Origin: Amphiscolops sp. MND2022
Lineage: Eukaryota
Assembly: GCA_964187785.1 (NCBI GenBank)
Contig: OZ076409.1
Coordinates: 54,128,001-54,192,000, forward strand
DNA: 64,000 nucleotides
Direction: 5' to 3'
This document shows, piece by piece, positions 27,164-44,736 of the stretch. Positions within the stretch are counted from its first letter, which is position 1; each line of letters starts with the position of its first letter. Under the pieces are notes generated by a model, which saw only the letters and a list, made by a program, of their open reading frames with translations, was not told the origin of the DNA and did not search any database. Made by a program: the position numbers and the translations under genes.

Positions 27164-27654
27164 TAGTATACCCATTCATCGGAAGTTCCCACGGTTGCAC
27201 TGGTCATCTTTTCAAAACTAGCCCTCAAATATTGGGATATTTTTAAATATATTTTTAAAATTGAATAATTGACAGGAAAGCTGTATATTGATGAAACATT
27301 AATCAACAGATATCCTAGATTTAGTATAGCGCAATAAAATAGTCATTTCTACATGACCCGACATGGATATGAAAGAAACGTTTTTTGAAAAAATCCAAAA
27401 GTTGTGCTCTCGATGTAAAAACGAGTTTGCGACACTTTCCGATGTGCATTTGGGTACACAGCTTGCCGTATGTCATCCCAGTTGATGAACAAACATAAAA
27501 AAACTCGCACTATGCCGAGATTCATCCTTAGGGGTGACCCTTTAAGCTAAAAAAACTATTTTTTACGTAAGTAGTTGGTTATTATATCTAACTAACAAAT
27601 CGATGGGGGGGGGGTTAGTTAGCAAAATAAAATTTCATTTCTACCAAAGACTAT

Positions 27655-27700
27655 GAGTCCCTCCCGGGACTCGAACCTCGCCGACCTAACCACTATGCCA
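27655..27700 (-). promoter_or_regulatory. tRNA-like Pol III A-box/B-box pair in left terminus, facing outward
   Basis: Minus strand reads TGGCATAGTGG-N12-GGTTCGAGTCC, with a GAGTCCC/GGGACTC hairpin. Confidence 0.5.
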
Positions 27701-30368
27701 CGAAACCATCTCAACCAGTATATTCAGGTTCTATATAAACCCAATAAATACCCAGTGAGCACCCCCCCCCCCTTCACACTCTACATGCAAAAATTGAAAA
27801 ATTTTGAAAATCTTACAAAAATTCGGGAAAGTATCTGGAACAATCAGAAATGAAAAAAACCGCATCGTAGATATCAGAAAACAAGAAAAAAGATTAAAAA
27901 ACTGTCAAAAATGTAAACACCCCCCACCCTCCACACACTACATGTGACAAAAATGAAAAATTTTAAATTATTCAAATATCCCAGACATAGTGCGAAACAT
28001 TCAAAAACTTGTTAAAAGCGTTGCAATCATCAATATTGAAGGGAAACTGTCCCAGCAAACACTTCCTCAGGACATATAAATTCTCAAAAACGATCAGAAA
28101 CAGAAAAAAGAACTTGCTTCAATTTGGGGTGTCGCAGCATGTTTTTGATCGTGAAGACAACTAAAACTAATCTATTAGAAATATTCTTTCTGTAAACCTC
28201 ATTCCACCGGCAGCCATTCATCGGAAATGAGAAACCCAAATTCAAGAGTGTCCATGGCTGACTTGTATTCTCATTTAATTCCGCTGGTTGAATAACTGAA
28301 TGGATTCTAGGCCGCATTGTGCGGTTCGATAGGAAGCAAATTATGCATTTTACAGAAATCCATACTGAGCAAATGGGTCGAAATACATAGAACTCTAAGA
28401 CATTAACAAATCTTGGTTCATTTTCATTTGTCTAGTTTTAGGCTGTAAATGGCAAGATTCTTGAACCCATCAAGCGAGACTTTACCAGTCGGCTGTCTAC
28501 CACTAATACTTTTCGTCTCATATTCTAAGCTTCCAGGCGTTTAGTATTTCAGTATATTAGAACAACAGATCAAAGATATCCCCTAGTGAAATCACCGAGT
28601 TTTAGGTTTTCAAGAGAAACAGTTTACGCTATCAAAACTTCAAACCCTTGTCTTGCTTCTCATTTCAATTCTTGGGTATCGTATGGCCCACTGTAACAGT
28701 GTATAATCAATTGCAGGTCTAGTTTACACCCACTGCGTCAATTTTAGTACTGGATTTCTAAGCAAAAAGTAAAACAGATAGTAGTCAATTAGACTTAGAT
28801 CAAATTACCCCCAGGTCAAGCGAAGATAAATCAAGTTACTTGTTTTCTGATCTTTGAAAAAGCTGTATCGATACTTTCCCAAAATCAAATGGGCTGTACA
28901 GTCCTGCAATGTTTTCGCCGAACTGGAGAATAAATTCCATATGCCTAGGGATACTAGGTTTCATTGTGTTCAAAATCTTAGCTACTTTAGACTTATTGTA
29001 TGGTCTTTTATATTGAAAGTTAGATCAAATATGAGGCCTATACAAATGTGTTCATCACGTCTTAGCTACTTTAGACCTGTAGTATGATACTGTATTTTGA
29101 AAGATATATCGAATATAGGTCCTATACAACCGTGTTCATCGAATCTTAGCTCATGCATCAATTTTCTAGGAACTTCAAAATTTTAAAGTGGGCTCCCTGA
29201 AAACTTGGAAGCTAGTGCGAATATAACCCAGCATTTCTGGAAACGAGGGTTCAAGGAGTATCTTTTGAAGCACCGTTTGCGACCCAAATGGTGATACCTA
29301 TCGGACAGAATTTACGGTAGATCACCTGTAACTTTTCTCTATATTTCTACGTAGTCAAGTATTTGCCAATGTCTAGAGCTCTTCTCACAAAGTCCGCAAA
29401 GTCTGAAATTTTACATGGATTTAGAGCTCTCGGCTAATTATCTCTTCCTTGATGCCGAGAATTACATAGATTGTCTGGATGAATATACTTTGCTATTTTC
29501 ATCAGTCATGCCATCTCAACAACATGAGACTAACAACATTTGTCAGTTATAATAGCAACTCTGAAGTGAGTCAGATTGAGTACGCAAAAGTTCCACTAAA
29601 CAAGCTGATGCACGTTCAACAGCTGTAATAAACATTTACACATACTGTGTCGGTACCGCTTTTGATCTTATCCAGCGTCGCACTCTGCAGAGTCTGTTTG
29701 CTTAATTTTTTTCTAATTGTTTGACTCATGTTGAAAACAAATGCCACCCGGGACATTCTATTGAAGCTACTGTTTAATGCTTAATCACAAGTACAAAGGG
29801 CCGACGTCGCTTTCATGTTTACACAGCGTGTTGCTCTGTTTGATCAATCTGGAATTTGTAACTACGGAGATCTATATGCCACTCGCGACACGCCTATTGG
29901 AGCTACTGTGTAAAAAACAATCAATAAATACAAAGTTCCTGTGTCGCTTTCATGTTTACACAGCGTGTCGCTTTATTTAATCAATATGGAATTGGCAACT
30001 ACAGAGATCTATTGATCCAATATCAATCTTGCATCCGGTCTGCTCGACCAAAACAAAAACAATCCATACTAAATTTAGTTTACGATGAACTGGCAAATGG
30101 AAATGATTTGAATTGTGAGGTCTCGATTCTGTTTTAATCATTAGTATCTTGTTTCAAAACATTCATCAAGTTTAGTGAATGAAAAAAGAATAGCAAGCCA
30201 TTTCGGTGGGGTTAAAGTTTTGTGCCTGATGAATATTGTTTTGTGTGCAACAAGTTCTCTGTTGTGTCAAATGTCATTGAGCTTCAGTTTACTTCAAGTA
30301 TCTTGTCAGTAATTTTTTTCAGGTATTTGTCTTGACATCACCGGTAGCACAGCAAATCACCAGTCAAA

Positions 30369-43424: not shown

Positions 43425-43470
43425 TGGCATAGTGGTTAGGTCGGCGAGGTTCGAGTCCCGAGAGGGACTC
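43425..43470 (+). promoter_or_regulatory. tRNA-like Pol III A-box/B-box pair in right terminus, facing outward
   Basis: TGGCATAGTGG (43425-43435), GGTTCGAGTCC (43448-43458), hairpin GAGTCCC-gaga-GGGACTC (43453-43470). Confidence 0.5.
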
Positions 43471-44736
43471 ATAGTCTTTGGTAGAAATGAAATTTTATTT
43501 TGCTAACTAACCCCCCATCGATTTGTTAGTTAGATATAATAACCAACTACTTACGTAAGTGAAAGTTTGGTGAAAAGAAAAAAGAAAATCGAAAAAAGTT
43601 GCATAATGCCAGAAAATTCCAACAAAGGTTGCCCTTCACAGTTTGGTCTCATTCTGTTTTGTGATTCATGAAAAATTGTGAAGTGATAATTAGGCAGACC
43701 CTTTCGTCCTATTTAGATATTAGGATAAAAGCCTGTGGAAAAATGATCAATTGCGATACATTCTGTTGTATAAATATTTGGGAAATGTTTGCAACTTTAC
43801 AATCCGAAAAGCAGAAAGTTGAAAGTCCGATCCTTCAAATCTTTGAGTTAAAAAGTAGGCCTTATTTTTTAAACTAGTTAATCAGATTAAAGGAATTACA
43901 TGCAAATTCCAGACAGTTCTCATTATAACACAGCGCCTATCATCTTTGATTAAGGGTCATGGCAAGAATTGCAGGAGGTTGTATACATTGCTCGCTATCT
44001 TTGTCCCTGTTGAGTTCATTTTTTCATAAATAATTCTCTCCCGCTGTTTTCCAAATTTAGAAGGCTTCCCGGGACGAACAAGCTCTCCAACAGGGTGGGA
44101 ATAATGCCTGTCACACTGACAAATAGGTAAAAAAGCGTGCCAATGAATTAACACTGCATTGCAAAACTGTCAATCTAAGATTAATGAAATTTGCAGGGAA
44201 TCAATTAAAACAATGGCATGATTGGAATTTGGGGTGAAAAGTTCTCGGAAAATGACCGGATTCAACCTCTTAAGAGCTTTCTAGCTGACGAAGGATAATA
44301 AGGAAGGTATTACGGGATAATAAAAATCCAGATTTATCGACCGCCACTTGTTTCCAGCTCTCTGGCAAATGAATCGGATGATTTTTTATCCCGTTTGGAG
44401 TAGGAAAATCCGCTCCGGTATTTCAAGAGACAGAATTTCCGCCCAAAAATACACATAGAATAGTTTTTTGTTATGATACAATAGCTAATATACTATCACT
44501 TTTTACAAGCTCTTTTTCATTACTTTCTCTTAATACCCATGTGGCCCAAATTGCAAATTTTATATTCATAAAAATGAAATGTATATAAAACTGGTATGAA
44601 GTATAAGCGTTTTAAGAGGGTACTTTTGACCTTATTTCAAAGGAAAGTATCAGAAGGGGAGGGTAAGTTGTAGCACAATGACCTGAATACTCCGCCTTCG
44701 ATGATCACAAAAGTCAATTTCAATTTTTTCTTTCAG

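Follow-up and report, generated by a model that had tools for sequence, protein, structure and literature searches.

The window, that is, the whole stretch of DNA analyzed, comprises 64 kb of contig OZ076409.1 of Amphiscolops sp. MND2022 and does not contain a single N. The LIM-domain exons of a host gene were located in it at positions 3927-4181, 26363-26557 and 44682-46124; by its LIM architecture, this gene is a putative prickle. An element of 15,982 bp, which begins with AGTAGT, ends with ACTACT and is flanked on both sides by TACGTA, is inserted between the second and third LIM exons, at 54155570-54171551 of the contig. Consequently, the placement of the insertion within a prickle intron, proposed in a preliminary description of this DNA, holds as regards its position between two LIM exons, whereas the name prickle remains an assumption. 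The features of the locus are as follows:

26363-26557, + strand: host LIM-domain reading frame (second LIM), upstream of the insertion
27564-27569, no strand: left TSD TACGTA, seen in the sequence
27570-34740, + strand: left arm, inverted repeat of 7,171 bp (self-BLAST, junction comparison)
27570-27735, + strand: terminus also present in the autonomous helper, with AGTAGT, the 35-bp tip, a G-run and a subterminal block
27667-27700, - strand: putative A-box and B-box of Pol III, tRNA-like and pointing toward the terminus
28966-29151, + strand: 84-bp minisatellite of the left arm, 2.2 units
30369-30752, + strand: ORF1, 127 aa, predicted PC4/PUR-type ssDNA-binding fold, open here
31696-32274, + strand: ORF2, about 190 aa, disrupted by a frameshift in the left arm; its N-terminal part weakly matches HUH/Rep origin-binding-like folds in structure
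33082-33651, + strand: ORF3, about 190 aa, open in the left arm and with a TP...CPPAPKK motif at the C-terminus
34741-36396, no strand: unique central spacer, 1,656 bp
34789-35877, + strand: TRAF-like gene, split here into three frame pieces, with a MATH domain at the C-terminal end
36397-43551, - strand: right arm, inverted copy (self-BLAST)
37485-38047, - strand: right-arm copy of ORF3, with indels relative to the left one, limits approximate
38857-39432, - strand: right-arm copy of ORF2, early end, limits approximate
40376-40759, - strand: right-arm copy of ORF1, open
41988-42152, - strand: 84-bp minisatellite of the right arm
43390-43551, - strand: right terminus common to the helper, inner limit approximate
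43552-43557, no strand: right TSD TACGTA, seen in the sequence
44682-46124, + strand: host reading frame downstream, end of the third LIM and C-terminus ending in CKIS

Self-BLAST of the window aligned positions 27563-34740 with 43558-36397 over 7,183 columns with 98.9% identity (52 mismatches and 10 gap openings), which confirmed the near-identical inverted arms around the spacer, as well as the termini and flanking hexamers, reported previously. The arms are about 7.17 kb each, and such TIRs (7.2 kb each) make up 90% of the element. The mismatches climb inward, from 4 in 2992 positions of the outer 3 kb to 33 in 1989 at 5-7 kb. The element carries no long ORF, and polymerase, integrase, ATPase, protease and capsid genes were not found in it, in agreement with the earlier view that it is non-autonomous and has lost the polymerase, integrase and capsid genes.

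The element was confirmed to be a real member of a multi-copy family in the same genome. Among the 15 family copies with both ends retrieved (12 called by script, C1:103.76 and C7:73.1 by reading of the flanks), 14 had a perfect 6-bp TSD, different in each copy, and the remaining one had a single mismatch. The preliminary description had pointed out that the palindromic TACGTA could be a TSD or an extension of the arms; this ambiguity is resolved, since the other copies carry their own different TSDs, for which that description had proposed to search. Of the 82 loci of the marker gene ORF2 found in the best 150 of 454 candidates, 49 formed inverted pairs and 33, mostly uninspected, were unpaired. 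The spacer measured 1.42-1.66 kb in 11 of 14 copies, the arm/spacer junction lay at one fixed place, and the interior identity among copies was 78-99%. In copy C4:77.7, arms from two subfamilies (about 80-86% identical) were enclosed within one perfect TSD. The inward mismatch gradient was significant in three of the four low-divergence copies tested and patchy in older ones. Several related loci contained 200-N gaps with local duplication.

An autonomous Polinton family with matching tips was found in the same genome, with elements of 16.4-18.5 kb and TIRs of about 150 bp; nine of ten newly retrieved loci with the exact tip were autonomous-type elements of 16.4-17.9 kb, and the tenth was a satellite. 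These tip-matched helpers encode an rve integrase (Pfam, E = 3e-12), an A32 ATPase above the Pfam cut-off and an adenain-like protease below it. The polymerase was assigned by homology to a 1,473-aa ORF, 39-42% identical to polymerases of small Polintons found with PF03175, and the capsid genes by position and homology only. Thus, the Polinton/Maverick nature of the ends, suggested at the outset, was supported by full elements with core genes, and the retention of near-native length is borne out by the comparison of 15,982 bp with 16.4-18.5 kb. Satellite and helper also agree in generating a TSD of 6 bp. The seven loci first found by PF03175 were smaller Polintons with other termini and had no DNA similarity to the element.

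The first 35 bp of the element were identical to those of type-A helpers, and the similarity extended to 166 bp, reaching further against the ATPase-side end of the helper. The DNA common to satellite and helper was limited to about 115-185 terminal bp and the 84-bp minisatellite, which was about 70-75% identical to an 84-bp array that the helper carries close to its polymerase end and had more units in other satellite copies. About 95% of the arm had no detectable similarity to the 12 retrieved elements that made up the type-I helper sample. Comparison of ORFs of at least 70 aa from 13 Polinton loci with 17 satellite copies revealed no match below E = 7e-4 outside the termini and the 84-bp repeat, and helper polymerase ORFs had no match inside the 17 copies; a tblastx match between window positions of about 33030-33170 and the helper polymerase was an artefact of linked statistics that disappeared in tblastn. 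Hence the proposal that one helper end had been duplicated together with its accessory genes was not upheld.

The tips and interiors of the satellites were discordant, which suggests helper switching. Copies C2:94.7 and C1:48.4 were 98.5% identical inside, yet the tip of C2:94.7 matched that of a type-B helper better (83% identity) than the type-A tip (61%), whereas C8:11.8, 79% identical inside, had a 100% type-A tip. Another helper variant fitted 6 of 15 satellite tips clearly better than type A, and a third tip type led to a helper whose polymerase region was 74% identical. The presumed Pol III A-box and B-box were also present in the helper TIRs, and the copy studied has a 20-bp deletion between them; this stretch was not called as a tRNA by ARAGORN or as a family by Rfam, and a relaxed ARAGORN run was uninformative.

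The three arm genes and the TRAF-like spacer gene were shown to be kept under purifying selection: pairwise dN/dS in bins above dS 0.15 was 0.23-0.25 for ORF1, 0.09-0.19 for ORF2 and 0.22-0.37 for ORF3, and 0.33-0.47, at lower dS, for the TRAF-like gene, the pairs not being independent in either case. ORF1 to ORF3 had no credible family in Pfam or PHROGs, and matches of arm ORFs to Herpes_gI and NAD_binding_8 were rejected as lying below the cut-off. For ORF1, all top 10 Foldseek ranks were PC4/Pur/Sub1 proteins (best E = 0.003; best Z = 6.8, rmsd 4.9, 79 aligned, within the tool's range for a possible common arrangement), without a Pfam PC4 match. Residues 14-111 of ORF2 found their best matches among Rep/HUH and origin-binding domains in three structure searches, at a weak level (best Z = 4.4, rmsd 3.3, 73 aligned; no Foldseek E below 0.001). 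Histidines H45, H60 and H62 were kept in 58, 57 and 55 of 60 ORF2 homologs, and the candidate H-Y-H metal motif in 55-57 of 60, whereas none of the 10 columns tallied held an invariant tyrosine, the best candidates being Y81 (40/60) and Y110 (43/60). Two cysteines are nearly invariant and may form a structural metal site, and no helicase domain was found. The ORF2 profile matched 157 clusters at 50% identity (E up to 0.001). A PDB sequence search with ORF2 profiles gave nothing useful, an Atlas search with two ORF2 copies gave no match for the first and, for the second, only eukaryotic clusters without names, and a scan of viral contigs found no relative; the single metagenome match, L091 (38% over 49 aa), looks like chance. 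A second PC4 domain at the start of ORF3 found no support in profile comparison, and the left-arm ORF3 is slightly shorter than in other copies. ORF2 and the TRAF-like gene are both broken in the copy studied, the latter forming one frame of 364-371 codons in several other copies; its TRAF-type MATH domain (PF21355) was detected with E = 5e-17 here and 3e-18 in an open copy, with no RING or zinc finger detected.

In all four other large-Polinton loci retrieved, the ORF1-3 cassette adjoins the protease; it should be noted that these loci were chosen by their ORF2 match and give no frequency of the cassette. It was absent from all 17 tip-matched helper loci, namely, 12 of 12 type-I helpers, three of three family-II helpers and two of two third-tip loci, one of the latter being a central 8.7-kb piece only. 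Small Polintons in this genome also had no cassette, and no satellite tip matched the three cassette-bearing termini retrieved. A 211-aa helper ORF beside the protease was rejected as an ORF2 homolog, since no homology was detectable (probability 2%). The three ORFs are co-directional in the satellite, whereas ORF3 diverges from ORF1 and ORF2 in the autonomous elements, so the arm has been rearranged. The integrase tree unites helpers I and II, but the capsid tree does not, and their grouping is weak elsewhere; according to the integrase grouping, the loss of the cassette may be one event. A sister foldback family, II, is built in the same way and has a distinct tip, which matches that of a separate autonomous family without the cassette. 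The spacer of this foldback family holds a protease remnant about 83% identical to the protease of its own helper. A separate 17-kb foldback contains only a polymerase in each arm.

It was concluded that the element very probably belongs to a helper-dependent satellite lineage of Polinton/Maverick elements mobilized in trans, as judged from its sequence; such mobilization is indicated by the presence of TSDs and the absence of its own enzymes. The terminal-protein-primed polymerase of the helper would start at either tip, and the helper integrase would insert the satellite. Each displaced strand, self-complementary owing to the 7-kb arms, would fold into a nearly full duplex with a ready origin, and repeated panhandle or template-switch replication would homogenize the arms from the tips inward, although gene conversion after insertion could also give the inward mismatch gradient. 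Recombination in co-infected cells may exchange tips between satellites and helper variants, and arms among satellite copies. Packaging into the helper capsid is the probable reason why a length near 16-17 kb is maintained, to judge by the match in length. By their predicted folds, the PC4-like ORF1 product probably binds displaced ssDNA, the HUH-fold ORF2 product probably attaches to DNA at the origin, and the TRAF-like cargo probably acts on host signalling.

A reading compatible with the same mechanics, which would make the pair mutualistic, is that the foldback is a second genome segment: a cassette-bearing ancestor would have split, and the foldback would supply the PC4/HUH-like/ORF3 cassette in trans to a helper keeping the polymerase, integrase and capsid, a division resembling that of bipartite bidnaviruses. 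The distribution of the cassette, the lack of satellite tips matching cassette-bearing termini, the protease remnant of family II and the polymerase-only foldback speak for it. However, the four cassette loci were picked by ORF2 itself, the small Polintons lack the cassette and none is known with a partner, and the loss may be a single event. Moreover, the helpers integrate on their own, benefit to the satellite would explain the selection on the cassette equally well, and the arm gene order is rearranged relative to autonomous elements. We therefore consider this split doubtful, and it appears similarly unlikely that this Polinton clade is functionally multipartite, with cassette-less helpers and palindromic partners that carry the lost module in duplicate and capture helper tips; the polymerase-only palindrome may be another such segment.

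Far less probable is a recent copy-back or defective-interfering derivative with one end of a tip-matched helper duplicated. The shared tips, the 84-bp minisatellite lying about as far from an end in both, the helper-derived protease remnant in family II and a layout resembling snap-back genomes as characterized in PMC13506859 are consistent with it, but most of the arm is unlike the 12 helpers, and the arm genes, missing there, resemble an internal cassette of other Polinton families. Since the family is old, as indicated by its interior identities, single conserved junction and selection on its own four genes, it represents an evolving satellite lineage and not a fresh defective-interfering product. 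A recent copy-back origin is thus contradicted, whereas an ancient one from an extinct relative may be considered. Parvovirus-like rolling-hairpin self-replication, with ORF2 as nickase and only the integrase borrowed, would suit the self-complementary genome, the weak Rep/HUH matches and the conserved histidines; it is rendered highly improbable by the absence of an invariant tyrosine from the 10 columns tallied and of a helicase domain, the putative structural role of the cysteines, the open AGTAGT protein-priming termini in place of hairpins and the occurrence of ORF2 in non-palindromic autonomous Polintons. Giant palindromes are hard to assemble, and the gapped related loci could speak for a chimeric fold-back read or a collapsed palindrome, but the arms differ by substitutions and gaps, the flanks differ past the TSD, no N is present, and the family has individual TSDs, a conserved junction and a copy with arms of two subfamilies, so the probability of an assembly artefact is negligible.

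The satellite lineage bears on the question of whether Polintons of animals continue to produce virions and to replicate apart from the chromosomes: the retention of helper length, tip swapping, arm recombination before insertion and selected genes constitute indirect evidence of an extrachromosomal co-infection phase. The common 115-185 bp mark the likely minimal cis-signal for replication and integration, and the three arm genes define an unannotated accessory cassette of Polintons, one product of which probably has an HUH fold. To judge by the TRAF-like cargo, the satellite may manipulate immune or death signalling of the host. If true, the multipartite reading would represent an integrating dsDNA counterpart of bidnavirus segmentation. 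Pipelines that require core genes or limit TIRs to 2.5 kb, as outlined in 10.1101/2023.10.06.561300, would miss such elements.

A literature search outside subscription journals, Repbase and bioRxiv supplements revealed no account of Polinton satellites that form giant palindromes and bear genes. Foldback transposons (FB of Drosophila, Galileo) and MITEs are associated with cut-and-paste transposases and other TSD lengths. The satellite is similar to them in its very long inverted arms and presumed mobilization in trans, whereas its ends and TSD are of the Polinton type and its arms encode conserved proteins. With Polintons/Mavericks (polintoviruses, adintoviruses) it shares AGT-repeat ends, a 6-bp TSD and a size of about 16-17 kb; it differs in having no core genes, in its gene-carrying 7.2-kb TIRs and in its reliance on a tip-matched helper. 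Vertebrate Polinton elements are given a mean length of 16,862 bp and TIRs of 46-1,447 bp in PMC8097293, and Polintons in general 13-25 kb and 100-1,500 bp in 10.1101/2023.08.22.554363.

Polintons without polB but with cargo, as well as polintons with 2-kb gene-containing TIRs, are described for Pieris and Euchloe (10.1101/2025.02.07.637071) and, as far as that description extends, resemble the satellite in genes duplicated within long TIRs and in mobility apparently retained after polymerase loss. However, they have retained capsid or protease genes of the core and look like deleted versions of their parent, whereas the satellite family has no core gene, is almost wholly palindromic and carries genes that its helper lacks. 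Snap-back/copy-back defective viral genomes, to the extent covered in PMC13506859, are likewise palindromic, have authentic ends and need a helper, but the satellite is heritable, integrated and old, has its own selected genes and captured cargo, and its interior does not come from the present helper. Bidnavirus segment VD2 (PMC4061559) and segments of Drosophila Vesanto virus (PMC8363768) are, like the satellite, polymerase-less linear DNAs that have their own gene set and whose ITRs resemble those of a partner encoding pPolB; they belong to ssDNA viruses, measure 3-6.5 kb and do not integrate, whereas in the present case the two partners integrate and a need of the helper for the foldback is hypothetical.

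Comparison of the window with itself revealed an inverted match of 27563-34740 against 43558-36397 (7,183 columns, 98.9% identity, 52 mismatches, 10 gap openings), free of N bases, which bears out the near-identical inverted arms, spacer, and TACGTA flanks of the preliminary description. The features concerned are as follows:

27570-43551, foldback element, AGTAGT to ACTACT, with a spacer of 1,656 bp
TACGTA, target site duplication (TSD), on either side of 27570-43551
3927-4181, 26363-26557, and 44682-46124, host LIM-domain frames
30369-30752, ORF1, predicted fold of four strands and a helix
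31696-32274, ORF2, frameshifted in the window copy
33082-33651, ORF3

The positions of the LIM frames show that the element is inserted after the second and before the third LIM exon of a gene that, by its LIM architecture, is presumably prickle. Arm mismatches in the window copy increased inward (4/2992 vs. 33/1989, p = 6e-10), as they did in two of three other low-divergence copies. Near the LIM2 exon, short palindromes were noted (25660-25857, 26746-26947, and 27049-27139), namely a perfect 70-bp hairpin adjoining a 134-bp one (98.5%) and two weaker ones. The LIM1-LIM2 intron held transposase-like remnants at 5562-5945 and 8391-9098, presumably of pogo/CENP-B type and Tc1 type, and nested direct duplications at 50229-63877 (0.4-2.9 kb, 96-98% identity, higher GC) probably represent a repeat element copied in tandem.

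Matches to the first 331 bp of the element were numerous in the genome (1.07 Gb), most of them forming inverted pairs at distances of 16-17 kb (best 40 of 418 candidates), and the foldback layout was the same in all 10 pairs fetched first. As the preliminary description anticipated, the copies of this satellite family carried different 6-bp TSDs, perfect in 14 of the 15 copies having both ends and with a single mismatch in one (the copies at C9:9.0 and C4:76.9 Mb, each missing one end, are left out of this count). Satellite lengths ranged from 12.5 to 25.7 kb, mostly 15.9-17.7 kb. In 11 of 14 copies the spacer measured 1.42-1.66 kb, and the arm/spacer junction had a fixed position. With ORF2 as the marker (best 150 of 454 candidates, fragments merged to 140 hits, sister family II included), at least 49 of at least 82 loci were inverted pairs, whose median spacing was 7.05 kb.

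Conservation across satellite copies extended to four frames, each of which, in the left half, reads toward the center. For the ORF1 model, every top Foldseek rank was PC4, Pur-alpha, or Sub1 (best E = 0.003; best Z = 6.8). The ORF2 model, built from 60 homologs, was confident (pLDDT 90); residues 14-111 matched Rep/HUH and origin-binding domains best in three libraries, though at weak scores (Z of at most 4.4, E above 0.001), and H45, C53, H60, H62, and C79 were retained in 55-59 of the 60 homologs, with no invariant tyrosine among those tallied. The C-terminal TP...CPPAPKK motif of ORF3 (33550-33610) may resemble the cyclin/CDK-binding motifs of plant SIAMESE-related inhibitors. The spacer gene, of TRAF-type MATH type, was fragmented in the window copy and formed a 364-371-codon frame in other copies. 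This cargo is under selection: in pairs that are not independent, dN/dS above dS 0.15 in natural open copies was 0.23-0.25 for ORF1, 0.09-0.19 for ORF2, and 0.22-0.37 for ORF3; values approached neutrality (0.46-1.16) where copies were very close, and TRAF gave 0.33-0.47 (6 copies).

TRAF cargo was found in two unrelated mobile elements of this genome, the satellite and a high-copy retrotransposon, presumably Gypsy-like by its pol frames (C8:12.32 and C4:21.89 Mb; L087-L090), which carried a Monjiviricetes-type fusion glycoprotein followed by a TRAF-like MATH ORF ~36% identical to that of the satellite. In two small Polinton families (L027, C11:32.3; L035, C7:48.8 Mb), the ORF that comes first (288-318 aa) gave weak ORF2-profile scores (E = 6e-5 and 1e-4), which suggests that an HUH-fold-like gene may be more widespread in Polintons.

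The exact 20-bp tip occurred 42 times in the genome; of 10 new exact-tip loci fetched, one was a satellite and nine were 16.4-17.9-kb elements with short TIRs (~150 bp where measured), to which three loci with variant tips were added. These tip-matched Polintons (helpers) are the full elements sharing termini that the preliminary description sought: their gene content comprises an rve integrase (E = 3e-12), an A32 ATPase, and, scoring below cut-off, an adenain-like protease, together with putative capsid genes assigned by position and homology only. A further ORF of 1,473 aa gave no Pfam polymerase hit itself and was 39-42% identical to the polymerases of those smaller Polintons that PF03175 had picked out. 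Similarity between element and helpers was confined to bases 1-166 and to an 84-bp minisatellite (70-75% identical), beyond which no helper ORF matched inside 17 satellite copies. For this reason, the earlier proposal of a copy-back of the helper's end fails, and a recent event of this kind is highly improbable, while helper dependence of the element stands.

In helper locus L057 (1232-1885), a ribosomal protein S5-domain ORF (Pfam E = 3e-8) lay near the polymerase-side end, a region that differs between helper copies. Outward-facing tRNA-like Pol III A/B boxes, which recall adenovirus VA-RNA promoters, occurred at window 27667-27700 and 43425-43458 and in helper TIRs, inside the shared terminus; neither ARAGORN nor Rfam made a call in this stretch. 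The Polinton load of the genome was very high (1,908 polymerase candidates at first look), with several families having open core ORFs.

Tips and interiors of the satellites were discordant. The C2:94.7 interior was 98.5% identical to that of C1:48.4, and its tip was only 61% identical to the type-A tip and 83% to a type-B helper, whereas C8:11.8, with an interior 79% identical, had a perfect type-A tip. Another helper variant fitted clearly better for 6 of 15 tips, and none fitted the C3:58.2 tip well. The arms are likewise mosaic: their gene trees were mutually conflicting, and C4:77.7 combined arms of two subfamilies within one perfect TSD.

With a distant ORF2 homolog as the query, other high-copy families were found, in which the cassette of ORF1, ORF2, and ORF3 lay directly beside a large-Polinton protease in all four loci fetched, with the polymerase on its other side in three of the four; similarity of the satellite arms to these Polintons was limited to the three frames. 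Cassette profiles matched none of 12 tip-matched helpers, vs. strong hits in both positive controls. The sister foldback family II (C1:45.08, C4:16.78, and C12:28.83 Mb; L092-L095, L098) had the same three arm genes (~70-76% DNA identity), a different tip, long 84/166-bp arrays, and an adenain protease remnant as the spacer. Its tip led to its own autonomous family (L108-L113), in which the cassette was absent from 3 of 3 helpers and with whose protease the remnant grouped (support 0.999). One family-I subfamily bore a third tip, which led to another variant of the helper, 74% identical in the polymerase region, the cassette being absent from both loci, one of them partial. The foldback could thus be acting as a second segment that supplies a module lost by its helper, as VD2 does in bidnaviruses (PMC4061559), a reading that we regard as rather unlikely. 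The cassette-bearing loci were selected by ORF2 itself, small Polintons also occur without the cassette, and, on the trees, helpers I and II may have lost it either once or twice. A self-replicating rolling-hairpin element and an assembly artefact are each given very little credence.

Helper-dependent replication with fold-back, tip capture, and insertion by helper integrase is, taken as a whole, the probable mechanism. Its steps are modeled on protein-primed replication, which adenoviruses are known to use and which has been proposed for Polintons, with jumping-back end motifs (PMC8097293). The helper terminal-protein/polymerase would begin synthesis at the satellite tips, the displaced strand would fold back along its arms, and copying from the tips inward would homogenize them; co-infection would permit tip capture and arm exchange, and helper integrase would insert the product. 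Packaging in helper capsids might also occur, as suggested solely by length.

Among other elements, a Polinton at C1:83.85 Mb (L102 and L103) carried capsid, integrase, ATPase, and the cassette, with a 498-bp tandem array in the expected polymerase place (the sequence fetched stops short of the ends); it belongs to a young high-copy family with dozens of equally scoring ORF2 hits. A separate 17.1-kb foldback (C2:43354930-43372067; L067 and L068) had arms of 8.0 kb (99.8% identical), a TSD of GACGAA, and a 200-N gap in the center. Its AGTAGT tip was present twice, nested at a distance of 92 bp, and each arm held one 1,452-aa ORF whose product is a divergent homolog of pPolB (against that of the helper, 27% over 368 aa); a similar double tip occurred at C3:80.51 Mb.

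The element is not an autonomous Polinton; with helper-type tips, a helper-like length, a 6-bp TSD, and no core genes, it agrees with the non-autonomous Polinton-type derivative originally proposed. No description of a gene-bearing giant-palindrome Polinton satellite was found in the literature searched, which did not extend to subscription journals, Repbase, or the first paper on Polintons. Published Polinton TIRs reach ~1.5 kb (10.1101/2023.08.22.554363; PMC8097293), and a 2026 preprint describes 2-kb gene-containing TIRs and mobile polB-less polintons (10.1101/2025.02.07.637071).
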